Below are positions 49,748 to 64,000 of a DNA stretch of 64,000 nt, in pieces. The stretch comes from an uncultured Acidimicrobiia bacterium (GTDB lineage Bacteria; Actinomycetota; Acidimicrobiia; Spongiisociales; UBA5794), in assembly GCA_963759175.1 (NCBI GenBank), contig CAVWXP010000008.1, forward strand, positions 179,041-243,040, in the 5' to 3' direction. How positions within the stretch are numbered: position 1 is the stretch's first letter; each line of letters begins with the position of its first letter. The translations under genes were made by a program, and so were the position numbers. The notes beneath the pieces were generated by a model, which saw only the letters and a list, made by a program, of their open reading frames with translations, did not search any database and was not told where the DNA came from.

Positions 49748-50791
49748 TCAGCGCACCGACAGGCCGGAAGCGATCTCGCGGCGCTCGAACGCGGCGCCGA
49801 CGAGATGGTCGCACAACACCGGGTAGCTCATACCTGAGGCAATCCACATCTTGGGGAAGCCGCTGATGGGTGTGAAGCCCGGCATGGTGTTGGCCTCGTT
49901 GAACACGAACCGGCCGGTTCCCGTCTCGTAGAAGAAGTCGATCCTCGCGAGTCCGTTGAGTCCGAGGAGTTGGAACACCCGCTCGGCGAGCATGCGCACG
50001 AGGTGGGCATCATCGCCATCGAGGTCCGCCGGCGCATCGAACCGACTCGTGTCATCGGCGTACTTCGCATCGTAGGTGTACCAACCATCGGCCACCACGA
50101 CCTCGCCGGGAACCGATGCCTGCGGTCCATCGAGTACGGCGACCTCGATCTCGCGCCCGTCGATCTGCTGTTCGATGATGACCTTCGTGTCGTACCGCAT
50201 GGCATGTGCGACGGCGTCCTTCATGGCGTTCTCATGCTCGACCCTGGTGATGCCGACCGACGATCCCTGGGCGGCAGGCTTCACGAACACGGGGAGGCGC
50301 AGGGAGCGGATGGGATCGGCGAGGGCTTGGGCCGGATCATCGTCCCACGCCGGACGTTCCACGGTTCGCCAGCGCGCCGTCGGGATCCCAGCGGCGGACA
50401 CGACCTGCTTGGTCAGGTCCTTGTCCATGGCCAAGGCACTGGCCAGGACGCCGCATCCGACATACGGCACGCCGCACGTCTCGAACACGCCCTGGACGGT
50501 GCCATCCTCACCCTGGGGTCCGTGCAGAACCGGGAAGGCGACATCGAAGCCGATGTCGTCGGTTCCGACGCGAAGGCGCCCTTCGGGCACGCTGAGGGCC
50601 ACGGGCCTGCCAGCGGCACGGAAGGGTCGATTCGAGGCGTCGGCGAGGTACCACTCCCCCGACCGATCGATACCGACGGGGATCACACGATGCCCGGATT
50701 CGACGAGGGCATCGTGCACGGCAACAGCCGAAGCACACGAAACCTCATGCTCGGCGGACCTGCCGCCGAAGAGAAGAAGCACCCGGGACAT
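49748..50791 (-). CDS. ddl: D-alanine--D-alanine ligase
   Basis: GGRSAEHEVS, PVLHGPQGEDG, GSSVG, NEANTMPGFT. Confidence 0.96.
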   Translation of the reverse strand: MSRVLLLFGGRSAEHEVSCASAVAVHDALVESGHRVIPVGIDRSGEWYLADASNRPFRAAGRPVALSVPEGRLRVGTDDIGFDVAFPVLHGPQGEDGTVQGVFETCGVPYVGCGVLASALAMDKDLTKQVVSAAGIPTARWRTVERPAWDDDPAQALADPIRSLRLPVFVKPAAQGSSVGITRVEHENAMKDAVAHAMRYDTKVIIEQQIDGREIEVAVLDGPQASVPGEVVVADGWYTYDAKYADDTSRFDAPADLDGDDAHLVRMLAERVFQLLGLNGLARIDFFYETGTGRFVFNEANTMPGFTPISGFPKMWIASGMSYPVLCDHLVGAAFERREIASGLSVR

Positions 50792-50839
50792 GGCGGCAGG
50801 TTACCGTGTGCCCCACCATGCACGGAGGTATTCGCACGC

Positions 50840-52615
50840 GTGGCGCAAGCTGATCCGATCCTCGAGTACCGCATCCGGGTCATCGCGACCGGCTTGATCG
50901 TGTCGTGGTTCGGCTTGATCGCGATCGCGATATGGAGCATCACCACGACCAACCTCCCGGTGGCGACCCAGGCGGTCGTCCTCGGCGGTTTCCTGGTGGG
51001 CCTCGTGATCCTGTCGGTGGCACCGTGGCGAACGATGCTCCAATCCGCGATCGGCGACTGGGTGCTCCTGGCGTGGAGCATCATCACGCTCCTCGCGGTG
51101 TTGACCTTCGAGATCACCCGCGAAGGTGCCCCCGCCGGTGTCAGTTTCCTCCTCGTCACGCTCTTCGCCGCGGCCACGCTCATGCCGAACGCCGCGCTGC
51201 TGGTCGTCGGGATCGCCTCGACCCTGCTCTATGCGATCGCACTCGTCGACGACGCTGGACCCGACGGCCTCGACGGCCTCACGCTCGCAGCCAACCTCAT
51301 GGCCTTCACCGGAGCCGTGGTGTTCGTGCTCCTGGTGTCCGTGGGCATCCGTACCCAGCTCGAGCAGACCGCCGATGCGTACAGCACCCTCGTCGAACGC
51401 GAGGCCGTCCTCACGCGCCGTGAACGTGAGATGAGCCAGCTGTACGACGTCTCGCGAACGATCGGTGCCGGATCCAAACTCGACGAGGTGCTCCCGGAGC
51501 TCGTCGGACGCGTCGCCCAGTCGGTGAGCGCCCGCGTGGGCCTGGTGCTGCTGTACGACCCCGAGACGGAGCACCTCAACCTCATGTCGCCCATCTGGGC
51601 CGCCGGTCACACCGTCCCGGCCGATCCCTTCACGCTCGCCCTCGACGACCCGGGTATCGGCCCGCGCGTGTTCATGAGCGGTGATCCGGTCGTCATGAAT
51701 GACACCTCCGAGGCTTCTGCCGATGATCGCCTCATCGGTGAATTGGCGGCCGACCGGATCGCCGCCGTGGCCATGAGGATCGAGAACCGGACCATCGGCG
51801 TCCTCCTCGTCGCCGACAAGCAATCGGCATTCACCGACCTCGACGTCGAGACGCTCGAATCGGTTGCTGCCCCCGCTGCGCTCGTCCTCAATCAGATGGC
51901 CCGCTACGAACAGGCGCGCACGACCGGCGAACGCATGGCCGAACTCGCCGAGCTCAAGACGGACTTCGTCTCGGTGGTCTCCCACGAGCTGCGCACGCCG
52001 CTGACGAGCATCATCGGTGCACTGACGACGCTGAGGCGTCCGGAACTGATGCCGGAGGACCCTCGGGCCCAGCAACTCGTGGACATGGCCACCAAGCAGT
52101 CGAACCGCCTGCGGACACTGATCGAGGACCTTCTCGTGATGTCGCGGATCGAGGCGGATTCCCTCCCGGTACGACCCGAGACGATCGACCTCGAGCCGTT
52201 CATCTCAGACCTGCTCGACACGCTCCCCGGCGGTGATGCGATCACCCATGAACCAACACCCGGTATCGGGTCGGTCGTAGCGGATCCCGACCACCTCACC
52301 AGGGTGATCTCGAACCTGGTCGACAATGCCATCAAGTACGGCGGCGACACCGAGATCTCCCTCGTGACGGCGGTGGCCAAGGGCGAGGTGCAGATCTCGG
52401 TCATCGATCACGGTCCGGGGATCCCCTACGAACAGCACGACCGCATGTTCGACCGGTTCACCCAGCTCCAACCGCACGCGACGCGCTCGAAGGGAGGCGC
52501 CGGGTTGGGCCTGTCGATCGTGCGAGGTCTCGTCGAGGCGATGGACGGACGGGTGTGGTTCGAACCCACCGTCGGTGGCGGCGCCACGTTCACCGTCGCG
52601 ATCCCCTCGGCGTGA
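50840..52615 (+). CDS. Membrane GAF-domain sensor histidine kinase
   Basis: TM N-terminus, GAF, SHELRTPL, NLVDNAIKY, DHGPGI, GLGLSIV. Confidence 0.9.
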   Translation: MAQADPILEYRIRVIATGLIVSWFGLIAIAIWSITTTNLPVATQAVVLGGFLVGLVILSVAPWRTMLQSAIGDWVLLAWSIITLLAVLTFEITREGAPAGVSFLLVTLFAAATLMPNAALLVVGIASTLLYAIALVDDAGPDGLDGLTLAANLMAFTGAVVFVLLVSVGIRTQLEQTADAYSTLVEREAVLTRREREMSQLYDVSRTIGAGSKLDEVLPELVGRVAQSVSARVGLVLLYDPETEHLNLMSPIWAAGHTVPADPFTLALDDPGIGPRVFMSGDPVVMNDTSEASADDRLIGELAADRIAAVAMRIENRTIGVLLVADKQSAFTDLDVETLESVAAPAALVLNQMARYEQARTTGERMAELAELKTDFVSVVSHELRTPLTSIIGALTTLRRPELMPEDPRAQQLVDMATKQSNRLRTLIEDLLVMSRIEADSLPVRPETIDLEPFISDLLDTLPGGDAITHEPTPGIGSVVADPDHLTRVISNLVDNAIKYGGDTEISLVTAVAKGEVQISVIDHGPGIPYEQHDRMFDRFTQLQPHATRSKGGAGLGLSIVRGLVEAMDGRVWFEPTVGGGATFTVAIPSA

Positions 52616-52646
52616 GCATCGTCACCGACGACCCACGATCGGGACT

Positions 52647-53453
52647 TCAGGGAGCTCCGATGTCCGGATCGAGTCCCTCCCCCGCACCCGCCGCAACGGC
52701 GTGGAATCCCCCGTCGACATGCACGATCTCACCCGTCGTGGCCCGTGCATAATCGGACAACAACACACAGGCCATCTGGGCGACGGGTTCCGGATTGCGG
52801 GGCTCCCACCCGAGAGGCGCTCGCACCTGCCAGAGGTGCTCGAACTGGGTGAACCCGGGGATCGACTTGGCCGCAACGGTACCGAGGGGTCCGGCAGCCA
52901 CGAGGTTCACGCGGATCCCGTCACCACCGAGGTAGCGGGCGAGATACCGGCTGACCGACCCGAGGGCAGACTTCGATACCCCCATCCAGTCGTACGCGGG
53001 CCATGCATGGGTGTTGTCGAAGTCGAGGCCGACCAGGGCGCCACCGCCGGCCTTGACCATGAGCGGACGCAACCCGACGGCGAGCGTCTTGTACGAGAAC
53101 GCCGAGGTCAGGAACGCGGTACTCGCGGAGTCGGCGGGTGTATCGAGGAATGAGCCGCCCAGGGCGTCGGTGGGAGCGAAGGCGATCGCATGGAGGGCCC
53201 CGTCGACGCCTCCCCACCGCTCGTCGAGGTCGGCGACGAGTGCCTCCATGTGCCCTGGATCGTTGATGTCGAGCTCGACGACGTCGGCGGGTCTGGGCAG
53301 GCGCTTGGCGGACCGGCGGGTCAGCGACAAGCCACGACCGAAACCGGTGAGCACCACTTCGGCGCCGAGGTCCTGGGCGACGCGGGCCGTGTGGAATGCG
53401 ATCGAATCGTCCGTGAGGACGCCCGTGATCACGAGTCGTTTGCCATCGAGCAT
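52647..53453 (-). CDS. fabI: Enoyl-ACP reductase (FabI/InhA)
   Basis: ITGVLTDDSIA, YDWMGVSK, NLVAAGP, GEIVHVDGG. Confidence 0.93.
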   Translation of the reverse strand: MLDGKRLVITGVLTDDSIAFHTARVAQDLGAEVVLTGFGRGLSLTRRSAKRLPRPADVVELDINDPGHMEALVADLDERWGGVDGALHAIAFAPTDALGGSFLDTPADSASTAFLTSAFSYKTLAVGLRPLMVKAGGGALVGLDFDNTHAWPAYDWMGVSKSALGSVSRYLARYLGGDGIRVNLVAAGPLGTVAAKSIPGFTQFEHLWQVRAPLGWEPRNPEPVAQMACVLLSDYARATTGEIVHVDGGFHAVAAGAGEGLDPDIGAP

Positions 53454-53497
53454 GCGTGTCCCTTCCCGGAGAACGTCGTGCAGACTAGACCAGGTGC

Positions 53498-53869
53498 CTA
53501 CCCGACGTTCGCCCACGCCCGCAGACCGAGTCCCATGACGAACAACAGCAGGATGCCGTAGGTGAGGGCGGGTCGCCTGGCCATCGTCGACCGGTAGAGG
53601 TAGGCGAGGGTGAACGTGATCACGATGACCACGCCGTAGAACACATGGAACGAGTTCCCCGGGCGGACGTTGTTCGAGTACAGATAGACGCCTGCACCGA
53701 CCTGGATGAGCATCACGGCGATGGCGATCGCTCGTGCCCATCCGAACGCCCGTGGCGGATCACGCTTGATGATGGCCGTGACGAGGCCCCAGGCACCGAC
53801 GATGCCACAGGTCACGACGGCGACCCAGAACCAATTCTGGTGGAAGGTCAGGACGGAGTCGAGTGGCAC
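53498..53869 (-). CDS. Small membrane protein (4 TM)
   Basis: Hydrophobic ORF with FHVFYG motif. Confidence 0.7.
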   Translation of the reverse strand: MPLDSVLTFHQNWFWVAVVTCGIVGAWGLVTAIIKRDPPRAFGWARAIAIAVMLIQVGAGVYLYSNNVRPGNSFHVFYGVVIVITFTLAYLYRSTMARRPALTYGILLLFVMGLGLRAWANVG

Positions 53870-53959
53870 GTCACCGCCTCCCGGATCGCCGGACACGGAT
53901 GCGTGGGGGTTTCGAGGGAAGGCTCCATGTGATCATCACGAGGACGGTAGGTTATCGGC

Positions 53960-55183
53960 ATGGTCGAACTCCACCCCCACGGCATGGCCCACGGAGGCGA
54001 AGCCGTCGCACGCCGCGATGGCAAGGCACACTTCATCGCCGGCGTGATGCCCGATGAGGTCGTCGAGGCCTCGATCGTCGAGGACCGTGGCTCATGGGCC
54101 CGCGCCGAGCTCGTCGAGATCGTCGAGGCATCGCCGGGACGTCGCTCCGCCCCGTGCCCGCATGCAGCCGCATGCGGCGGATGTCAGTGGCAGTTCGCCG
54201 ACGAGTCCCATCAGCGGGACTGGAAACGCGAGACGGTGACTTCGCAGCTCGAGCACCTCGGCCGGATCGCATCACCGACCGTCCATCCCACGGCGACGAC
54301 CGGATCCGTCCTCGGCTACCGGAATCGCATGGACTTCCACGTCGTCGACGGCAAACCGGGGCTGATGCGGGCGCGTTCGAACGATGCTGTTCCGCTCGAT
54401 GTCTGCCTCCTCCTGCACCCCACGCTCCAGCCTGTGTTCGACGGGCTCGGCGATCTCACCGGCGTGGAGCGAATCACCCTGCGCTCGGGAACCCGGACGG
54501 GAGATCGGTTGGTGGTCATCGAAGGCGATGTCCCCACGCACGCAGCGCAATGGGGTGTCCCGGTGGTCCACCGGACGAACGGGAAGACCACCACCGTGTT
54601 CGGCGAGGCGATCCTGCGCGAGGTGGTGGACGGCGTGACCTTCTCCATCCCTGTCGACGGCTTCTTCCAGAACAACACCGAGGGTGCCGACGTCCTCGTG
54701 GAACTCGTCCGCAACGCCGCGCAACTCGAGGGCCACGAGACCATGCTCGACGCCTACTCGGGGGTGGGGCTGTTCGGCGCCACCGTGGGCGCGGACGCCG
54801 ACCTCGTACTCGGTATCGACTCGTTGCCGAACGCCGTCGAGTTCGCACGGCGCAACGTGGCAGCCCGCGGGATCGACCATCGCTACATCGCAGGATCCGT
54901 CACGAGGGACATCGAGGCACTGGAGGCCTATTGGGACGTCGCCGTCCTCGACCCACCGCGCAAGGGCATCGGCGTCACGGGCGTCGACGCCGTCACCTCG
55001 GCCATGCCGCGCAGGATCGTCTACGTCTCATGTGATCCCGCTTCCCTGGCACGTGACGCCAAACTGCTGAGCGACGTCGGATACGGATTCGTCGATGCGA
55101 CGCCGGTCGACATGTTCCCCCAGACCTACCACGTCGAGATCGTGGCGACGTTCGATCGCCTGGCCGACGACCCCGAGGAGTGA
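53960..55183 (+). CDS. rlmD: TRAM-domain RNA m5U methyltransferase (RlmD-like)
   Basis: CPH..ACGGC, YRNR, LDAYSGVGLF, DPPRKG, YVSCDP, DMFPQTYHVE. Confidence 0.88.
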   Translation: MVELHPHGMAHGGEAVARRDGKAHFIAGVMPDEVVEASIVEDRGSWARAELVEIVEASPGRRSAPCPHAAACGGCQWQFADESHQRDWKRETVTSQLEHLGRIASPTVHPTATTGSVLGYRNRMDFHVVDGKPGLMRARSNDAVPLDVCLLLHPTLQPVFDGLGDLTGVERITLRSGTRTGDRLVVIEGDVPTHAAQWGVPVVHRTNGKTTTVFGEAILREVVDGVTFSIPVDGFFQNNTEGADVLVELVRNAAQLEGHETMLDAYSGVGLFGATVGADADLVLGIDSLPNAVEFARRNVAARGIDHRYIAGSVTRDIEALEAYWDVAVLDPPRKGIGVTGVDAVTSAMPRRIVYVSCDPASLARDAKLLSDVGYGFVDATPVDMFPQTYHVEIVATFDRLADDPEE

Positions 55184-55224
55184 ACCGAGGAGCGATGGAC
55201 GATGTGCAGCGGTGAACCCGGCGC

Positions 55225-55842
55225 CTACATGGCGTCGAGGATCTCCTGCCGCTTGCGCTCGTACTCCTCATCGGAGATGAGGCCCTCGTCACGCAACGCA
55301 GCCAGCTTGCGGATCGACTCTGCCTGATCCGGAGCGGGAGCCTGCACGACGGTCTTCGTGCCGGACAACTCCATCGAACGATGCTCACGCGTCTTGTACA
55401 ACAGCGTCTGGAAGGCGTCGGGATGCGGGATGTTGGAGAACTTGCTCTGACCTGTCGACCCTGCCGATTCGATGAGCAGGTCACCGGCGCCGAGCATGCG
55501 CTCGAACACGGATTGCGAGAAGTTGACGTTGGTGATCCGCTCGAGGGGGATGTCGACGCCGCTCTTGGCGATCAGGCCGGTTCGCGTGATCAACCGCTCT
55601 GACGTGAGTACATAGCGGGTCGTCCACCAGTTGACGACGGGCCTCACGACGAAGAAGACGCCGAAGCCGACCAGGACGGCAACGACCACCCACACGAGGA
55701 CATCGAGATTCACAGCGACGAGGATCATCGCCACGGAGAGGCCGACGAACCACAGGAACGGGATGAACAACAGTTTCCAGTGGGGGCGGAACGATGTGAC
55801 GATCGTTTCGCCGTCCGAGAGTGCATCTTCTGGCCAAGGCAT
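55225..55842 (-). CDS. Bacterial PH-domain membrane protein with SHOCT tail
   Basis: Two TMs, YVLTSERLI..G, LRDEGLISDEEYERKRQEIL. Confidence 0.85.
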   Translation of the reverse strand: MPWPEDALSDGETIVTSFRPHWKLLFIPFLWFVGLSVAMILVAVNLDVLVWVVVAVLVGFGVFFVVRPVVNWWTTRYVLTSERLITRTGLIAKSGVDIPLERITNVNFSQSVFERMLGAGDLLIESAGSTGQSKFSNIPHPDAFQTLLYKTREHRSMELSGTKTVVQAPAPDQAESIRKLAALRDEGLISDEEYERKRQEILDAM

Positions 55843-55935
55843 GGCGCCAGACTAGCTCCCGGCAGCACCAGCGACGCCGTATACGGGGGAATTCTTCGCG
55901 GCGGCCGATCACCGCCACGCATCGCCCGGAGACGC

Positions 55936-56213
55936 GAGAAACCCCAAGGAAGCCGAAGCCCCCTTGGGGTTCCCGTTGGACCGACCGACCTTTCGGCCAG
56001 CCGCTCCCCGCTCCGCAAGCGGAGCGGCAGTCGTGGGCCGAAGCCCCCGACCCTCCGAAGCGAACCGTGTGACCGGAGTCACCCGGAGGGCTTGCGCCCG
56101 TCCACCCGAAGGTGTCCACGTCCGGAGCGGCCCGTTTCCGGGCCCGTCGGCTTGCGCCGACCCGCTTCGGGTTTCCCCTCTGCGGACCGCCTCGGGGTTT
56201 CCCCCTTGGCGAT
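55936..56213 (-). ncRNA. Putative structured ncRNA A (~280 nt), family unknown
   Basis: About 10 hairpins capped by GAAA/GCAA/UUCG on the minus strand; upstream promoter-like elements; terminal terminator hairpin; no credible ORF. Confidence 0.7.
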
Positions 56214-56219
56214 GAACGC

Positions 56220-56294
56220 ATCATGGTGCCGCCCCTGCACCAAACGCAAGCCCGATCGCTGGTTCGTTTTCGCGTCCTTCGTGGAGTTTTCGCG
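56220..56294 (-). promoter_or_regulatory. Promoter of RNA A: -10 CATGAT (56220-25), -35 TTGCGT (56244-49), CGCGAAAAC direct repeats (56266-74, 56286-94)
   Basis: Same geometry as the promoter of RNA B. Confidence 0.65.
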
Positions 56295-56311
56295 CGGCCC
56301 GGTACCCTCTG

Positions 56312-56935
56312 GTGATGCGAGCCAGCCGTGCTGCCCTGATCGTCGCGATCTCCGCTCTCGTCGCCACTGGCTGCGGGACGAGCGAACCGACCCAGACCAC
56401 GCCGGGTGTGGTCGGCGGTAGCGGATTGGTGCTCTCTGCTGACGGCATAGGAACCTACGCGATCGGCGACGATGCCGACGTGGTCATCGACGGCGTGTCC
56501 GCCCAGATCGGCGGATGGGACTCGGATTCCCTCGAGCCGGGAACAGCCATCGAGGTGCCAGAGTGCGGCGGCGGGGAGGTACGGCAGATGTCGTGGGGCA
56601 ACCTGGTGCTCGTCTTCGTCGACACGGGAGCGGGCTCGCGATTGTTCACATGGGCCTATGGCTACGACCCCGTGACCGGCAACGCCGAGGACCGACGCGG
56701 ACTCGACCTGAGGACGGACTCGGGTGTCCGGTTGGGAACGCCGCGATCGGAGCTCGAACGAATCCATCGCGGCGAGGTCTCGATCACCGACGACACGTCC
56801 GTCGACATCGCTCGTTTCACCGTCGACGGCGACGAGGAGGAGCACCTCGGTGGTCGGTTCGGTTCGACGGCTCCCGACGCCGTGGTGCAGTTCCTCGAAC
56901 GGATCCCGGGGTGCGCCGGAGCCGCATCGGGATGA
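56312..56935 (+). CDS. Hypothetical lipoprotein
   Basis: Lipobox ATGC; GLVLSADGIG, TDSGVRLGT. Confidence 0.7.
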   Translation: MMRASRAALIVAISALVATGCGTSEPTQTTPGVVGGSGLVLSADGIGTYAIGDDADVVIDGVSAQIGGWDSDSLEPGTAIEVPECGGGEVRQMSWGNLVLVFVDTGAGSRLFTWAYGYDPVTGNAEDRRGLDLRTDSGVRLGTPRSELERIHRGEVSITDDTSVDIARFTVDGDEEEHLGGRFGSTAPDAVVQFLERIPGCAGAASG

Positions 56936-56962
56936 CCGGCCACCGGCATCGGTCGTCGACGC

Positions 56963-57360
56963 AGAAAACCCCGAGGAAGCTCGGCCGAAGCCTTGCCCTC
57001 TCGGGGTTCTGCCGAAGTGGATCGCTCCACTCCAATCCGGACCTCACCGGTTTCCCGGCTCCTTCCGGTCGTCCGTCCGTCTCCTCGCAGCGGTGAGGCT
57101 GCCAAGACCGGTCCCGGACCGCCATCCCGCCGAAGCCGGACGACGTCGCCGTCCCGAACCGAGGTCCGGTGCGGCTGGCAACCGCCTTGCGGCGGTCAGC
57201 CGGTGCCCTTCGGAGGCTGGGCTCCCCCTCGAGGCGAACCATCGGACGCCGAAGCGCTCGATGGGGTCGATGCAGGTCTCCCTGCACCGTCGGCCCGGTT
57301 TCCCGGGTGCTGGTCCCGAGGGATCAGCTGCCGAGCTCTCGGGGCTTTCACCCCTCGAGC
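56963..57360 (-). ncRNA. Putative structured ncRNA B (~400 nt), related to RNA A
   Basis: GNRA/UUCG-capped hairpins on the minus strand; 5' hairpin and terminator homologous to RNA A. Confidence 0.7.
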
Positions 57361-57367
57361 GAGCGGA

Positions 57368-57441
57368 AAGGTAGGGCACCCACCAGCGTGTCGCAACCCT
57401 GGGGACTCATTCGTTTTCGCGTCCTGCGATGGGTTTTCGCG
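57368..57441 (-). promoter_or_regulatory. Promoter of RNA B: -10 TACCTT (57368-73), -35 TTGCGA (57391-96), CGCGAAAAC direct repeats (57413-21, 57433-41)
   Basis: 17 bp spacer; repeats at the same offset from -35 as in RNA A. Confidence 0.7.
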
Positions 57442-57506
57442 AAGGTGCGTCACATGGATCGCCCGGGGGCTCGGGATGTGTCACAGCGCTCCGGTACAGT
57501 CGCCCC

Positions 57507-58367
57507 ATGGACATCGAAGCGGACTCGCCCACCCTCGCTGGTCACGTGCCGACCCCCGCGCTCACGACGCTGTCGCCGAGTCGCGCCAGCGACTTCAAGA
57601 CCTGTCCCCAGCTGTACAAGTTCAAGTCGATCGACAAGATCCCCACCGAGCCGACCATCCACCAGGCGCGTGGAACCACCGCCCATCTCGCCCTCGAGCG
57701 TCTCTTCGCCCTCCCGGCACCCGAACGCACACCCGAGCGCCTGTACGACCTGTTCCGCGACTCCTGGGCCGAGCTGAAGGTCGACGAGTACCCCGATCTG
57801 TTCGCATCGGTCGACGAGGAACGCGACTGGGGCATCGAGAGCCTCCACCTGTTGGCCGCGTACTTCGGCATGGAGGATCCGTCCTCGTTCGAGCCCGAGG
57901 AACTCGAGATGGACCTCACAGTCGACATCGACCACATGACCATCAGGGGCATCCTCGACCGTATGGAGCGCATCGTCGAGGTCGACGACGCTGGAACACC
58001 GCGTGAGCTGCTCGTCATCACCGACTACAAGACGGGACGCGCCCCACCACCCCAGTACGCGAACAAGGCCTTCTTCGCGTTGAAGATCTATGCCCTGTTG
58101 ATCCGGGTCACGCGAGGCATCACCCCTGACCGTGTCCGGCTGTTGTACCTCAACGGACCCACCGAGTACACCCTCGACATCACCGATGCCCAGCTCGATG
58201 CCATGGATCGCCAACTGGCCGCCCTGTGGAAGGCCATCGAACAGGCCATCACCACCGACACGTGGCCCGCACGTACGTCACCGCTGTGCGACTGGTGCGA
58301 CTACAAGGAGGGTCTGTGCCCAGCGTGGAACGACCCGCCGGTCGCGGCCCCCGGTGACGATGGCTGA
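57507..58367 (+). CDS. Stand-alone RecB-family PD-(D/E)XK nuclease with four Cys (probable Fe-S)
   Basis: LSPSRASDFKTCP, GILDR, ITDYKTG, LCDWC..C; TACAGT 6 nt before ATG suggests a leaderless mRNA. Confidence 0.88.
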   Translation: MDIEADSPTLAGHVPTPALTTLSPSRASDFKTCPQLYKFKSIDKIPTEPTIHQARGTTAHLALERLFALPAPERTPERLYDLFRDSWAELKVDEYPDLFASVDEERDWGIESLHLLAAYFGMEDPSSFEPEELEMDLTVDIDHMTIRGILDRMERIVEVDDAGTPRELLVITDYKTGRAPPPQYANKAFFALKIYALLIRVTRGITPDRVRLLYLNGPTEYTLDITDAQLDAMDRQLAALWKAIEQAITTDTWPARTSPLCDWCDYKEGLCPAWNDPPVAAPGDDG

Positions 58368-61323
58368 CGCCCCGAGCCACCACCGCCAACTCAGCCTCGC
58401 GAGCATCGCCGAGACCCGCATCGATGGGGGCCGGTGGGACGCCCATGTCGGACTCTCCGGTCGACCCCGCCTGGTCGTCGGCGGCCCGGGCACGGGGAAG
58501 ACCGCGTTCCTGTGTGACACGATCGTGGCCGCCGTCGATGGCGGCTTCGGACCCGAGGAGATCCTCGCCCTGTGCTTCTCGCGCCGCGGCGTCGACGACG
58601 TCAGGACCCGCCTCGGGGCGTCGTTGGGATCCCGCGCCCAGCGCATCACCATCGCCACCTACCACTCGCTCGCGATGCGACTGGTCGAGGCGCACGCCGA
58701 GGATCTCGGATGGTCGGGACCCCCGATGATCCTCGCGGGCGCCGAGCAGGAACACCTCGTCGCCGAGCTGCTCGCCGAGGAGGATCCGACGCACTGGTCA
58801 CCGGCGTTCCGGTCGGTCCTCGCCTCCGACGTCATGGCCCACGAGGTCACCGATTTCGTGCTGCGGGCCTCGGAGCAACGGTTCAGCGCAGCCGACGTGG
58901 CCTCGCGGCGCCGAGCCGACTGGACCGGACTCGCCGCTTTCATCGATCGCTACCACGCGACGCTGCGCCAACGTCGCCAGGTCGACTACGGACTCCTCCT
59001 GACCGAGGCACTGCGAGTGCCATCCATCGTGCCCGAGGCGACCGGTGGATTCGAGCTCGTCGTCGCCGACGAGTACCAGGACACCTCTCCCGTCCAGGCA
59101 GACCTGCTGATGGCGTGTGCCCGCGAGGCGAGCGACCTCGTCGTGGCCGCCGATCCCTACCAATCGATCTATTCGTTCCGAGGAGCCGATGTCACCAATG
59201 TGTTCCGGTTCCCCGACGACGTCGCTGCGGCCCTCGACCGACCCGTCGAACGCGTGATCCTCACGACATCGTTCCGGGTTCCCACCGAGATCCTCGACGC
59301 CGCTGTCTCGTTGACGGCACGCGAGCTACCGGGTGGCGCGGGGAAGGTCCTCAGCACCCGCACCGGTGGCTCAGTGCGGTGCCACGAGTTCGCCACCATC
59401 GGCGAGGAGGCGGAGTGGATCGCAGGCGACATCGAGCGGATCCACCTCCTCGACGGCGTCGCACTGCCGCGCATCGCCGTGTTCATGCGATCCCAGGGAC
59501 CGTTCCTCGACGATCTCAGCCGTGCGTTCGACCGGCGCGGTGTCGCACACACACACGTCGACGATCGCCTCGTCGACGAGCCGATCGTCCGGTGCCTCCA
59601 CGACCTCGTCCGGGCGTGCGTCGACGATGACCCGACCCCCGCCCTTCGTCGGGTGCTGTCCGGACCGTTCTTCGCACTCCCCCACGGCCTCGTCGCGACC
59701 CTCCCCGAGGATCGGGCCGGATGGCAGGCATGGCTCGACGAGCGGGGGGAAGACCTCGCTCCTCTGGCCGGGATGCTCACCGACGCCACATGGTGCGCCA
59801 CCATGGCAGCGGACCGGGGCCTGTGGGAGGTGTGGACACGGCTCCCGCAGATGCAGAGGGTTGCACTCGACGAAGCCATGGCGCGGCACCGTCGCGCATG
59901 GAGCGAGTACACACGCGTGATCGGTCGAGCCGTCGAGCGTTCAGCCGCCACCACCCTCGAGGACCAGACCGAACTGGCATCCCACGTCGATTTCGAGGCC
60001 GATACTCCGGGGAACCACCGCTCCGGCGGTGTCGTCGTGGCGACACTGCATCGCGCCAAGGGAACGTCGTTCGATGCGGTCTACATCGCCCATGCCGTGG
60101 AGGGGGAACTCCCCGATCTGCGCACGCGCGACTCGCTGCTCGGCGTCCGTCACGTCAGCGGACACCTCCCCACCGCGACCTCCGACTACCTGGCGTTCCG
60201 GCTCGACGAGGAGCGGCGCCTCGCCTACACGGCCATGACCCGATCGACATCGCAGGTGACCTGGACGGCCACCGTCGCGAACGAACGTGGTTCGGGATCC
60301 GTACCGAGCAGGTTCATGCGTCTCGTCGGCCCGACGACGCCGCCGACCCACAACCATCGACCGTTGACCCCGAGGACCATGATCGCCCAGCTGCGCCGCA
60401 CGGCAGCCGACCCGACGGCGAGTCCCGTGGAGCGATTGGCGTCGCTCTCGATCATCGGACGCCACCTGCCGAACGGTGATCCGGCCTCCACGGGCGACGC
60501 CCTGGATCGCTACGGTGTGCGGGCGCCCGGGGACGATGCAGGGGCGATCCCCTCGTCGCTGCGCCTGTCCCCCAGCCAGGCGCAGTCCTATGACACGTGC
60601 CCGCGCCGCTATGTCGTCGAACGCCATGTCCTTCGCGGGGACGACGACTCCCCCTACCTCAAACTCGGCAACGTGGTGCACCACACCCTCGAACTCGCCG
60701 AACGTGAGGCCCGTGACGATGGCCGGGAACGCAGTCGGATCGTCGACGCACGACGCCACCTCGACGGCCTCTGGCCCGCCGCCGGCTTCCCCGATGACAA
60801 CGTGGGTTCAGCATGGCGACAGCGTGCCGAACGCATCCTCGACGCCCTCTACGCCGATTGGCCGACGAGCGGAGTGGTCGTCGATCTCGAACGACCCCTC
60901 ACGTCGACCATCGGCGGCATCCCGTGGACGGGCCGGGCCGACCGCATCGAGCGGCGGGGTGATTCACTCCACATCGTCGACTACAAGACGTCCGCCACCG
61001 CCGCCACGCACGATGACGCGGGACGCTCGCTCCAGCTCGGGTACTACGTGTGGGCGGCGATGCACGACGAGGATCTGACGAACGTGGGGTCCATCGAAGG
61101 CGCATCGTTCTGGTATCCCGCGGCGCCGCCCCGCAGGGATGGCATCGCCACGCGTTCGTTCGACATGGCGCAACTCCCCGACGTGGAGGAGCGCCTCGCA
61201 GTCATCGCCGCGTCGATCGGGGCCGAGGAGTTCCACGCAACGCCGAACAAGGACTGTGGCCGTTGCCCCGTCGCCTCGACCTGTCCCGCGTTCCCCGTCG
61301 GGTCGGAGGCGTTCGCCCCATGA
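58360..61323 (+). CDS. adnA: UvrD-like helicase-RecB nuclease, AdnA-like
   Basis: GGPGTGKT, DEYQD, DPYQSIYSFRGA, LHRAKG, YTAMTR; C-terminal DRI..IVDYKT and CxxC..C. Confidence 0.82.
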   Translation: MADAPSHHRQLSLASIAETRIDGGRWDAHVGLSGRPRLVVGGPGTGKTAFLCDTIVAAVDGGFGPEEILALCFSRRGVDDVRTRLGASLGSRAQRITIATYHSLAMRLVEAHAEDLGWSGPPMILAGAEQEHLVAELLAEEDPTHWSPAFRSVLASDVMAHEVTDFVLRASEQRFSAADVASRRRADWTGLAAFIDRYHATLRQRRQVDYGLLLTEALRVPSIVPEATGGFELVVADEYQDTSPVQADLLMACAREASDLVVAADPYQSIYSFRGADVTNVFRFPDDVAAALDRPVERVILTTSFRVPTEILDAAVSLTARELPGGAGKVLSTRTGGSVRCHEFATIGEEAEWIAGDIERIHLLDGVALPRIAVFMRSQGPFLDDLSRAFDRRGVAHTHVDDRLVDEPIVRCLHDLVRACVDDDPTPALRRVLSGPFFALPHGLVATLPEDRAGWQAWLDERGEDLAPLAGMLTDATWCATMAADRGLWEVWTRLPQMQRVALDEAMARHRRAWSEYTRVIGRAVERSAATTLEDQTELASHVDFEADTPGNHRSGGVVVATLHRAKGTSFDAVYIAHAVEGELPDLRTRDSLLGVRHVSGHLPTATSDYLAFRLDEERRLAYTAMTRSTSQVTWTATVANERGSGSVPSRFMRLVGPTTPPTHNHRPLTPRTMIAQLRRTAADPTASPVERLASLSIIGRHLPNGDPASTGDALDRYGVRAPGDDAGAIPSSLRLSPSQAQSYDTCPRRYVVERHVLRGDDDSPYLKLGNVVHHTLELAEREARDDGRERSRIVDARRHLDGLWPAAGFPDDNVGSAWRQRAERILDALYADWPTSGVVVDLERPLTSTIGGIPWTGRADRIERRGDSLHIVDYKTSATAATHDDAGRSLQLGYYVWAAMHDEDLTNVGSIEGASFWYPAAPPRRDGIATRSFDMAQLPDVEERLAVIAASIGAEEFHATPNKDCGRCPVASTCPAFPVGSEAFAP

Positions 61324-64000
61324 CGTGGTTCATCCCCACACCCGAGCAAGCGGCGGTCATCGACCATCCCCGAACCCCGCTGCGCATATCGGCCGGTGCC
61401 GGCACCGGCAAGACGACGACGATCGTCCAGCGCCTCGCACGCGTGGTCTCCGCCGGCGGCGACCCGTCGCGCGCCCTTGGCATCACCTTCACCAACAAGG
61501 CGGCCGACGAGCTGCGCGAGCGACTCCACGAGGCGGTCCCACCGGACCCCGGGGGTCGGGAGATCGAGGTGGCGACCTACCACTCGTTCGCAGCCGGCAT
61601 CCTCGATGAGTTCGGCGCACGGGACGGCTATCGCGGCGGCGCCGGACTCATGGATGAGGGTCACCGGTTCGAGCTCGCCGGGAGGGTGCTGCGAAACCTC
61701 GACACCGATGCCCTGGACCTCACGAAGATCCCCAGCCTCCGCAAGGATGTCCTCGCCCTCGCCGATGCGCTCAATGACAACCTCCTCGACGCCGCCGACG
61801 TCCGCCGTCTGGCGCCTGTGGATCCCGATGAGACGTGGACGCGACGCCTCGCCCTGCTGGAGGCTGCCGAGCGCTTCCATGAAGCCAAGGACCACCTCCA
61901 GATGGTGGAGTACAGCGACCTCATCCGTCGAGCCGTGGAACTCGTCGAACGCCACACCGTGGTGGCCGACGAGATCACGGCCCGCTACGACACGGTCCTC
62001 CTCGACGAGTACCAGGACACCGACCGTGCGCAACGGCGCCTCCTCTCCCGCCTCTTCGCCGGGGGGACGGCCGTCACCGCCGTCGGCGATGCCGATCAGA
62101 CGATCTACGAGTGGCGCGGGGCATCGCTCCAGAACTTCGAGGGATTCCCCCTCGATTTCCCGCTCGACGACGGTCGGCCGGCTCCCACCTTGCCGCTTTC
62201 GGTCAACCGCCGATCGGACCGCGCCATCATCGACCTCGCCAACGTCGTACGGAAGCAGCTGCCAACGATCGACGGAGCCTCCGATCTGGTCCCACGTGCG
62301 GGGGCTGCGAAGGGTTCCGTCGTCACGGCGTGGTTCTCCACGGAGCAGGACGAAGCCATCTGGATCGCGGAGCAGGCCATCGACAGGCACGAGGAGGGGG
62401 TTCCGTTCGCGGAGATGGCAGTGTTGTGCCGACGCCGGGACAGCCTGCGGGTCGTCGCCGATGCCTTCCGGTCCACGGGCGTGCCCTTCTCGATCGCGTC
62501 GATGAGCGACCTGCTCGAGATCCCCGAGGTCGCGGACCTCGTGGCGTGGCTGCGCGTCCTCGCCGATCCGGGCAACGACCCCGCAGCGATGCGCATCCTG
62601 GTTGGGGGTCGCTACCGCCTCGGTCTCGGCGACCTCGCCCGGATGCGACGTGACACCGGAGCGGATCGCACGACGGGCCTGGTCGACGTCGTGTACCGGG
62701 CGACACAGGACGCGGATGCCGACGTGGCAGGGTCTCCCCCGGACGCGACACGGGCATTCGTCGCCCTCCACCGGGACCTGTACGCATATGCCCAGGCTGC
62801 CTCCGTGGCTGCGATCATCGACACCGTCATCGATCGACTCGACTACTGGTCAGAGGTGGCAGCCCTTCCCCGCCATCGAGCCGTGACCGCACGGCTCAAC
62901 ATCACCCGGTTCGTGGATCTGGCCCACCGGTGGCGGCCCCTCGACGGCGGTGGATCGCTCGCCGGCTTCCTTCGCTACCTCGACGCCCTGGCCGAACCCG
63001 GGCGGGCGGAGGAACTCGATGCAGCCGAGCCACCGAGCGACGATGCCGTCATGCTGCTCACGGCACACGGGGCCAAGGGGCTCGAATGGTCCGACGTGTA
63101 CCTCCCCGACCTTGCCCGCAACGTGTTCCCGTCACGCGTCCACAGCTACTTCGAGCCGCTGACGTCGGCCGTGGCGCTTCCCTATGACCTCAGGCTCGAC
63201 GCCGAGTCGATGAACGACGTCGCCGCGCTCGATGACACCGATGCGCGCAAGGCGCTGTTGAAGGTGCGTCACGACCACCAGGAGTGGAGGTTGGCGTATG
63301 TCGCCGTCACCAGGGCGAAGCATCGGTTGTGCCTCACGGGACACGCATGGCACGGCGACAACAAACGACCCCGCGAACCCAGTCCATTCCTCGAGATGGC
63401 CCGACAGCTTCCCGGCAGTGAGGCAGGCCCCACGATCGACGATCCTCGAACGCGTCCCGAACCACGTCCATTCACCCCTCCACCGGAACCGCCGGATCCG
63501 CTCTTCCCCGATGGTTGGGCGGATGCGTTCCGACGCACGGTGCGCGATCCTGCGTGGATGGAACGCGATCACGAAGACCTCAACGACGCCGTCCGTCGTC
63601 GCTCGTCCCAACTCGCATTGGAGCTCGCAGACCTGGCCGTACCCGTGCCGGGCGACATCGACGAGCCCTTCGCGACCTCCGTCACGAGCCTCGTCGCCCT
63701 CGCTGAATGCCCCTTGAAGTTCCGATGGATCCATCACGATCGTATGCCACGCCGACCCCGCTCATCGGCGAGGCGGGGTACCGAGTTCCACCGCAGGGTC
63801 GAGTTGCACAACGTCGGTGTCGTGACCCTCCACGATGCGACCGACGTCACCTACGACACCGCCGGCGATGACAGCGACGATGCCGCCGGGGATCGGGGCC
63901 CGATGCATGACCCGTGGGACGCCTTCGCTGCGTCACGTTTCCACGACCTGCGGCCAGACCTCGTGGAGACGCCGTTCGAGATCGTCTTCGAGGGTCGCAC
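61320..64000 (+). CDS. adnB: UvrD-like helicase-nuclease, AdnB-like (3' truncated by window)
   Basis: Manual translation: AGAGTGKT, ITFTNKAA, LLDEYQDT, VGDADQTIYEWRGA, TAHGAKGLEW, AYVAVTRAK, ECPLKF. Confidence 0.85.
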   Translation, partial: MTWFIPTPEQAAVIDHPRTPLRISAGAGTGKTTTIVQRLARVVSAGGDPSRALGITFTNKAADELRERLHEAVPPDPGGREIEVATYHSFAAGILDEFGARDGYRGGAGLMDEGHRFELAGRVLRNLDTDALDLTKIPSLRKDVLALADALNDNLLDAADVRRLAPVDPDETWTRRLALLEAAERFHEAKDHLQMVEYSDLIRRAVELVERHTVVADEITARYDTVLLDEYQDTDRAQRRLLSRLFAGGTAVTAVGDADQTIYEWRGASLQNFEGFPLDFPLDDGRPAPTLPLSVNRRSDRAIIDLANVVRKQLPTIDGASDLVPRAGAAKGSVVTAWFSTEQDEAIWIAEQAIDRHEEGVPFAEMAVLCRRRDSLRVVADAFRSTGVPFSIASMSDLLEIPEVADLVAWLRVLADPGNDPAAMRILVGGRYRLGLGDLARMRRDTGADRTTGLVDVVYRATQDADADVAGSPPDATRAFVALHRDLYAYAQAASVAAIIDTVIDRLDYWSEVAALPRHRAVTARLNITRFVDLAHRWRPLDGGGSLAGFLRYLDALAEPGRAEELDAAEPPSDDAVMLLTAHGAKGLEWSDVYLPDLARNVFPSRVHSYFEPLTSAVALPYDLRLDAESMNDVAALDDTDARKALLKVRHDHQEWRLAYVAVTRAKHRLCLTGHAWHGDNKRPREPSPFLEMARQLPGSEAGPTIDDPRTRPEPRPFTPPPEPPDPLFPDGWADAFRRTVRDPAWMERDHEDLNDAVRRRSSQLALELADLAVPVPGDIDEPFATSVTSLVALAECPLKFRWIHHDRMPRRPRSSARRGTEFHRRVELHNVGVVTLHDATDVTYDTAGDDSDDAAGDRGPMHDPWDAFAASRFHDLRPDLVETPFEIVFEGR

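Follow-up and report, generated by a model that had tools for sequence, protein, structure and literature searches.

What is encoded in the roughly 400 nucleotides (nt) that separate a lipoprotein gene from a divergent nuclease gene in a 64,000-nt stretch of DNA (hereafter, the window) from an uncultured Acidimicrobiia bacterium? A preliminary description had proposed that this interval holds a novel structured non-coding RNA (ncRNA), RNA B, and that it is an expanded paralogue of a neighbouring RNA A. Comparative sequence analysis confirmed RNA B as the gene for a folded ncRNA of an uncatalogued, order-wide Acidimicrobiia family, which was found neither in Rfam 15 nor in the literature searched. 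No Rfam 15 model matched anywhere in the window at the gathering score, and a search of the region at expectation values (E) up to 10 returned chance-level hits only (rpfG, E 4.1; SCARNA20, E 8.7). A scan for tRNA and transfer-messenger RNA (tmRNA) genes found none at RNA B. Together with the lack of a codon signal, strong covariation and the constant length of the orthologues, these results uphold the claim of a novel structured ncRNA.

The minus-strand RNA from position 57360 to about 56963 had a predicted minimum free energy of -245.8 kcal/mol (z -8.06), which 0 of 100 dinucleotide shuffles equalled. The plus strand of the same stretch reached -207.8 kcal/mol (z -3.50), an asymmetry of 38 kcal/mol. 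The predicted structure comprises 13 hairpins, mostly local, with six GNRA loops (GAAA three times, GAGA, GCAA and GCGA), three UUCG loops, two CUCG loops and the non-tetraloops AGCCCAG and CUCACC. Every hairpin proposed in the preliminary description was found in its place on the minus strand, namely the 5' hairpin H1, CCCGG[GAAA]CCGGG, UGCAGG[GAGA]CCUGCA, GCGC[UUCG]GCGU, ACCGCC[GCAA]GGCGGU, CCGG[GAAA]CCGG, GUGGA[GCGA]UCCAC and the terminal AACCCCGAG...[UUCG]...CUCGGGGUUUUCU (57008-56963). The pairs of H1 are kept in the genus with G-C to A-U and U-A to C-G changes, and a homologous hairpin stands at the 5' end of RNA A. Hairpin H11 is 98% paired in the genus, with G-C to A-U changes in four sequences. 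The helix that encloses hairpins H2 and H3 forms a probable three-way junction, with weaker support than the hairpins; by eye, the homologue L009 has ACGGC/GUCGU there when shifted by one column.

Selection on this structure is visible in the relatives. DNA matches were found in 34 of 41 related genomes searched, and nine other genomes of the same genus carry full-length orthologues of 398-403 nt at 68-71% identity. RNAalifold, run on the genus alignment, gave compensatory changes in 39 of 107 predicted pairs. Once its long-range pairs were removed, 92 local pairs remained to be counted over the ten same-genus sequences; these local hairpins were 94.3% paired, and in 34 of the 92 pairs both partners had changed. 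Of 500 column shuffles, none matched any of the five measures, and pairing fell to 31-52% when the 3' partners were slid by 1-3 columns. The central third of the alignment is imperfect and the hairpins there are less certain. Several invariant G-U pairs, including strand-specific ones in the 3' hairpin, would be A-C mismatches on the other strand, which indicates selection on the minus-strand RNA. The proposed long-range pairings UGCCA/UGGCA and CUCACCG/CGGUGAG are present in the window sequence but are 45% and 57% paired in the genus, the level of shuffled columns, and this part of the preliminary description was given up. An RNAalifold long-range helix at 40-54/205-221 was likewise judged an alignment artefact, as the region is a local UUCG/CUCG hairpin in each single sequence. 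There was no codon periodicity: variable columns are spread evenly over the codon positions (66%, 66% and 72%), 120 of 139 gap runs in the genus alignment have lengths not divisible by three, and from one orthologue to the next the longest open frame switches strand and phase.

In 10 of 10 genus genomes RNA A comes after RNA B in the same orientation, and both RNAs have a double box and a 3' hairpin of their own. The 3' hairpin of RNA A, CCCCAAGGGGGC[UUCG]GCUUCCUUGGGG, is a shortened form of that of RNA B, in which a G-C pair has become A-U by a compensated change (CCCCAAG/CUUGGGG). R2, a covariance model trained on just the initial ~95 nt of the B orthologues, recovered all nine B copies, and its next-best match was the 5' end of RNA A in eight of nine genomes. 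At RNA A in the window (56162-56212) it scored 22.3 bits (E 0.004); the best such match had E 4e-5 (L010) and the weakest E 0.16. These matches, the common promoter and the common 3' hairpin indicate that the promoters, the 5' domains and the 3' hairpins of A and B are homologous. The two RNAs thus align beyond their terminators, and the description of B as an expanded paralogue of A was borne out.

Beyond the genus, similarity is confined to the last ~50 nt, which are 82-93% identical across families of the order, and the RNA body diverges. An exact-pattern scan for the 3' hairpin over one genome per prokaryotic species gave at least 120 loci. Among the matches listed, all but two chance ones belong to Acidimicrobiia, to unclassified Actinomycetota metagenome-assembled genomes (MAGs) or to otherwise-labelled MAGs with the same locus; 113 units are preceded by the same box pair, -35 and -10, and the box-to-hairpin distance implies RNAs of ~110 to >600 nt, in size classes near 145-170, 210-290, 300-440 and 465-600 nt. 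Hairpins are gained and lost even among close relatives. What varies within the family is how many internal hairpins there are; its promoter, its 3' hairpin and the form of its 5' hairpin are fixed.

A covariance model of the 3' hairpin (R1) was run on 201 sampled genomes of the class. Strong matches (E<1e-10) were found in 48 of the 49 genomes of the window's order, and other orders of the class gave weak matches only (E 4.6e-7 or worse), figures that describe samples, not a census, and carry the rough E-values of short-calibrated models. R1 scored 62.4 bits (E 7.5e-17) on the 3' hairpin of RNA B (G000:C8:236004-236054; window 56964-57014) and 41.6 bits on RNA A. The palindromic hairpin also yields a weaker reverse-strand echo in R1, so the copy number was taken as ~1-3 tandem units; A and B are the only ones found in the organism's own 2.9 Mb genome. 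RNA B has the features of the family throughout: the double CGCGAAA box with a TTGAC-type -35 and a TAnnnT -10 at constant spacing downstream, the 3' hairpin CCCCGAGAGGG...CUCGGGG with its U-tract, and a site between a bPH_2-SHOCT gene and a divergent PD-(D/E)XK nuclease-adnAB cluster, in tandem with a paralogue. In some lineages a second locus holds a short (~150 nt) family member (L032:1728-2330; similar in L033, L038, L047, L053, L094 and L104). Its boxes are degenerate (TCGCGAAGAA, TCGCGAAATT), and it is divergent from the gene of a conserved protein of 96 amino acids (aa) and adjoins TetR and MMPL genes, with a luciferase-like monooxygenase also nearby.

RNA B has a predicted sigma-A-type promoter (TTGCGA, 17 nt, TACCTT), from whose conserved -10 the start at 57360 was placed, and its 3' hairpin with UUUU is predicted to be an intrinsic terminator. 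The promoter elements are conserved in position in the ten genus genomes and in the 113 family units among the matches listed. The two boxes upstream have their centres near -57 and -77, a constant distance from the -35, and this is the usual location of sites for activators that touch RNA polymerase. A third, inverted box after box 2 is present in the genus but was set aside, as it is not kept family-wide. Separately, the bases just past the terminator U-tract are kept as YYCGCG (e.g. TTTCTCGCG, TTTTTCGCG; window 56963-56968 and 55935-55941, family units L021-L140). On the opposite strand they resemble a CGCGAAAA-type box, which may be chance or a DNA-level signal.

The CGCGAAA double box is not private to the RNA genes. 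In the 2.9-Mb genome of the organism the exact pair CGCGAAA-N12-15-CGCGAAA occurs at four sites: RNA A, RNA B, ~355 nt upstream of dnaA and ~270 nt upstream of nrdJ (class II ribonucleotide reductase). The sole one-mismatch pair lies ~160 nt upstream of dnaB (replicative helicase). Pairs with two mismatches are within coding DNA, lack a -35 and were regarded as noise. Among relatives, a pair on the same strand stands at the equivalent upstream position in 19 of 30 dnaA loci and 20 of 30 nrdJ loci, and the one-mismatch pair upstream of dnaB recurs in nine of ten genus genomes and a few others. Six near-complete genomes had 2-4 exact pairs each, and a reversed-pattern control had 0; in the four of these genomes where genes were mapped, the pairs belong by position to dnaA, nrdJ and RNA units. 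Since the pair occurs elsewhere only at dnaA, nrdJ and dnaB, the synthesis of RNA B probably accompanies that of the replication machinery.

The occurrence of the box pair at the RNAs and at dnaA, nrdJ and dnaB also points to a compact replication regulon under a putative regulator. The nrdJ leader (G000 C10:316480-316650), 3' of the box-pair promoter, holds, besides another promoter-like site, two NrdR-box-like repeats (ACAACATCTAGGGG, ATATGTTGTATGTG) and, on the other strand, a DnaA box (TTATCCACAA); nrdJ seems to integrate at least three inputs.

How might such an RNA work? We favour the binding of a protein, a reading to which we give an even chance. It is favoured because the sequence of the 3' hairpin is constant, the body is an expandable set of stable tetraloop hairpins, and there is no unpaired seed common to all members. 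Throughout the order the sequence of the 3' hairpin is preserved, down to an A-C mismatch, G-U pairs and a tandem G-A; an ordinary terminator would drift, so the retention of the sequence points to specific recognition. In the mechanism that we propose, a putative factor, most likely an activator, is probably bound to the two CGCGAAAAC boxes, and the stand-alone gene would give a stable, highly folded ~400-nt ncRNA that begins with a protective 5' hairpin. The sequence-invariant 3' hairpin would close the transcript and double as terminator, its purine-rich internal loop would be a specific protein recognition site, and the expandable hairpin array may act as a scaffold or offer extra binding sites.

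Our guess for the leading candidate partner, by analogy with Ms1, CoRP and 6S RNA, is RNA polymerase. It is proposed because no 6S RNA was detectable in the class (none in the whole own genome at E up to 1, and none in 121 genomes of the class) and because in other Actinobacteria unrelated RNAs of 300-516 nt, Ms1 and CoRP, fill this role (PMC9130861, PMC11077062). A further possibility, doubtful as it stands, is that the RNAs form the non-coding arm of a replication-coupled regulon not recognised before, in which one factor reads the box pair at dnaA, dnaB, nrdJ and the RNA genes, and that as global regulators they tie another machine to the state of replication, perhaps with the invariant 3' hairpin as the means of sequestering either RNA polymerase or a protein of replication or repair.

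Several points weigh against these proposals. The 3' hairpin could have stayed invariant as a site of RNA-RNA contact or as a processing signal instead. The rod with a central bubble is what lets 6S RNA mimic an open promoter, and the predicted structure of RNA B is a chain of hairpins, not such a rod. 6S and Ms1 accumulate in stationary phase, whereas the co-regulation of RNA B with dnaA and nrdJ suggests expression in growth. The factor on the boxes could instead be a repressor. A generic promoter scan gave no site at RNA B, because TACCTT matches TATAAT at just three of six positions and falls below its threshold, and the promoter is predicted from its conservation only.

Other ways for the RNA to act were weighed against protein binding. 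RNA B would be a base-pairing small RNA (sRNA) if its invariant AGCCCAG loop paired with mRNAs to affect their translation or stability, like the C-rich loops of actinobacterial 6C RNA, and the other hairpins served only to stabilise it. GGGAGCCCAGCC is indeed genus-invariant and displayed in a hairpin loop, similar hairpins of other size classes have C-rich loops (e.g. GGCCCGCUUU, UCCCCGG), and sibling sRNA genes with a common promoter motif usually encode base-pairing sRNAs. We nevertheless consider this unlikely. The C-rich loop is found neither in RNA A nor in the short class II members and so gives no family-wide seed, and no single-stranded seed common to the whole family was found among the units compared. 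GGAGU, the next candidate, is enriched, yet it occurs in only 37% of units among the matches listed and was rejected as a family-wide unpaired seed. Moreover, seed-type sRNAs are not typically 400 nt long and folded into 13 closed hairpins, and the complementarity to the nrdJ leader found by eye amounts to 5 base pairs only. The wealth of GNRA and UUCG loops, the recurrent tandem G-A internal loops, the probable three-way junction and the near-universal presence of the family in the order would also suit an RNA that acts through its own three-dimensional architecture, either as a self-assembling or scaffold particle, of the kind lately seen among large orphan RNAs (ROOL, GOLLD and OLE), or as a catalytic or ligand-sensing RNA in which the GNRA loops make tertiary contacts. 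We regard this as quite unlikely, given that a family of such variable length, whose hairpins come and go among relatives, is a poor fit to one tertiary fold; the canonical 11-nt tetraloop receptor (CCUAAG...UAUGG) was not seen by eye in the RNA B sequence, and no pseudoknot or long-range helix was supported.

Could the hairpin arrays instead be attenuator-type 5' regions, with read-through controlling a downstream bPH_2-SHOCT gene? In 68 of 120 loci among the matches listed, such a gene stands downstream of the final unit in the same orientation, often after 80-350 nt, and RNA A ends ~90 nt before it. A leader role is not possible for RNA B, which faces the convergent lipoprotein gene and has no same-strand gene next after it. 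Every unit carries a promoter of its own and a strong terminator, the second-locus paralogue has unrelated neighbours and no alternative antiterminator pairing is conserved, so that we hold a cis-acting leader to be very improbable. The possibility that there is no RNA gene at all is largely refuted, and we attach next to no weight to it. In favour of a small protein-coding gene, open frames of 111-216 aa do extend across the region in this high-GC sequence, and a cluster of DNA palindromes, like repetitive extragenic palindromes (REP) or miniature inverted-repeat transposable elements (MITE), was considered as well. Against both stand the pattern of substitutions, gaps and frames described above, the G-U pairs and strand asymmetry that indicate selection on a minus-strand RNA, and the restriction of the element to one locus, with A and B as its only copies, rather than dispersal.

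The favoured protein-binding role invites comparison with known RNA systems. Ms1 (MTS2823 / scr3559) of Actinomycetia and CoRP of Corynebacterium are abundant RNA polymerase-binding RNAs (PMC9130861, PMC11077062). Ms1 is ~300 nt long with a central bubble and short 5' and 3' hairpins, and it is flanked by genes for a HAD-IB hydrolase (phosphoserine phosphatase-like) and an oxidoreductase (PMC9130861). CoRP is a tRNA-flanked RNA of 516 nt that binds the RNA polymerase core and holoenzyme, and the paper on it proposes one abundant RNA polymerase-associated RNA per bacterium, possibly differing from 6S and Ms1 (PMC11077062). Like Ms1 and CoRP, RNA B is an actinobacterial stand-alone structured RNA in the range of 300-500 nt, with short 5' and 3' hairpins and a fixed genomic position, in a lineage without detectable 6S RNA. 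Unlike them, it is flanked by bPH_2 and PD-(D/E)XK nuclease genes, occurs as 1-3 tandem paralogues of very different length and belongs to a family whose promoter is common to replication genes. The synteny of Ms1 is absent: RNA B lies between the lipoprotein and PD-(D/E)XK genes, and the two HAD-IB genes of the genome are on other contigs, at loci where stop-to-stop open reading frames cover everything in the high-GC DNA and mask any gene-free gap. By prediction, the fold has the 5' and 3' hairpins of Ms1 and no central bubble or long rod, and the supplement of the Ms1 paper holds no sequence with the family motifs. CoRP, compared by its published description, also differs in synteny, as there are no tRNA genes in window 50000-64000. 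RNA B may still work like CoRP, or like Ms1, which binds the RNA polymerase core without sigma-A.

6S RNA (RF00013), which binds the sigma-A holoenzyme and templates pRNA, is a possible functional analogue, as a global and abundant protein-binding RNA, in a lineage that has no recognisable 6S. Its model did not match RNA B at the gathering score or at E up to 10, and RNA B is twice as long (~400 nt, against a rod of ~180 nt), with 13 mostly local hairpins and no rod-and-bubble. CsrB/CsrC and RsmX/Y/Z of Gammaproteobacteria share more of the genetic organisation: they are sibling RNA genes of variable length made of repeated hairpins, with strong terminators and sometimes in tandem, and they have a conserved upstream activator-type promoter site. 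Their upstream site differs from that of RNA B, which is common to dnaA, nrdJ and dnaB, and the loops of RNA B are GNRA and UUCG rather than GGA, with 2 of 17 GGA triplets fully unpaired. CsrA (PF02599) was not found in the own genome and was absent from 20 of 21 genomes searched; with no CsrA and no GGA loops, identity with the Csr/Rsm sponges was rejected. The lone CsrA homologue (G011:C7:854132-854287, 87.9 bits), in a family-level relative, may reflect horizontal transfer or bin contamination. CcnA of Caulobacter is a cell-cycle-timed ncRNA, a short base-pairing sRNA of an alphaproteobacterium. The transcription of RNA B likewise appears to be wired to the replication or cell-cycle programme, and the two have no structural or sequence relation. 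A mimic of the 23S sarcin-ricin loop (CGAGAGG...GGAGUG) was also rejected, as the organism's own loop is ACGAGAGGACCGGGAUGAAC, without GGAGUG.

Large, widely conserved structured RNAs with unknown function are, to our knowledge, rare, and 6S, OLE, raiA and ROOL/GOLLD each opened a new line of biology. The family described here is near-universal in a major, mostly uncultured order of environmental actinobacteria. The shared boxes offer two handles on it, a transcription factor that would define a compact replication regulon and a predicted timing of the RNAs. If the replication-coupled proposal is true, the RNAs would be a new class of bacterial riboregulator without homology to 6S, Ms1, CoRP or Csr; should RNA polymerase prove to be their partner, they would take the 6S/Ms1 place that stands vacant in this lineage and support the proposal of one such RNA per bacterium (PMC11077062).

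Table 1 Features of the RNA B locus and related sites (window positions unless a contig of the own genome, G000, is given).
Feature	Position	Strand	Remarks
RNA B, predicted transcript, ~398 nt	56963..57360	-	ends inferred from sequence
Promoter box 1, CGCGAAAAC, about -81 to -73	57433..57441	-	CGCGAAA invariant in 10 genus genomes
Promoter box 2, CGCGAAAAC, about -61 to -53	57413..57421	-	20 nt after box 1, 16 nt before -35
Predicted -35, TTGCGA	57391..57396	-	TTGC invariant in genus; family consensus cTTGAc, fixed distance from box 2
Predicted -10, TACCTT	57368..57373	-	17-nt spacer, 7 nt before inferred +1; TA..TT kept in genus; family TAc.tT
5' hairpin H1, GCUC-GA-GGGG-U[GAAA]G-CCCC-GA-GAGC	57335..57360	-	tandem G-A internal loop, GAAA-type loop
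Helix UCGGC/GCCGA around hairpins H2 and H3	57282..57332	-	82% paired in genus
Hairpin with sole conserved non-tetraloop loop	57205..57235	-	GGGAGCCCAGCC invariant in genus; flanking helix covaries
Hairpin H11, CCGGA-AGGAG-CCGG[GAAA]CCGG-UGAGG-UCCGG	57037..57068	-	purine-rich internal loop
Hairpin H12, GGAGUGGA[GCGA]UCCACUUC	57013..57034	-	94% paired in genus
3' hairpin and U-tract, CCCCGAG-A-GGGC-AA-GGC[UUCG]GCC-GA-GCUU-C-CUCGGGG-UUUU	56965..57008	-	terminator scan match
RNA A, predicted, ~278 nt	55935..56212	-	fold z -7.78
Double box of RNA A promoter, CGCGAAAAC-N11-CGCGAAAAC	56267..56294	-	
Box pair at dnaA	G000 C5:187147	-	exact
Box pair at nrdJ	G000 C10:316377	+	exact
Box pair at dnaB	G000 C5:247517	+	one mismatch
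Gene of a predicted lipoprotein, 207 aa, signal ending LVATGC	56312-56935	+	between RNA B and RNA A, convergent with RNA B; no Pfam match
PD-(D/E)XK nuclease gene, then adnA-/adnB-like genes	57507-58367	+	divergent from RNA B; Pfam on neighbours

The neighbouring genes differ in how constantly they accompany the family. Among the matches listed, the divergent nuclease gene is present at 72 of 120 loci and the bPH_2-SHOCT membrane protein gene at the 68 noted above. The lipoprotein gene is found at only nine of the 120 and is thus a recent insertion into the RNA array. Its stop codon lies ~26 nt from the 3' hairpin of RNA B, and the hairpin may terminate both transcripts.

Upstream of the nuclease gene we noted a promoter candidate (window 57479-57509), TGTCACAG-N8-TACAGT, that ends 6 nt before the ATG at 57507. 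GTGTCAC and GGTACAGTC are kept in this region in most genus genomes. The arrangement suggests that the nuclease-adnAB mRNA is leaderless and made from its own promoter, which resembles the mycobacterial RecA-independent (PafBC-type) DNA-damage promoter, tTGTCRgtg-N8-TAnnnT. As this operon apparently has a promoter of its own, the RNAs would group with the replication genes and not with the neighbouring repair operon.

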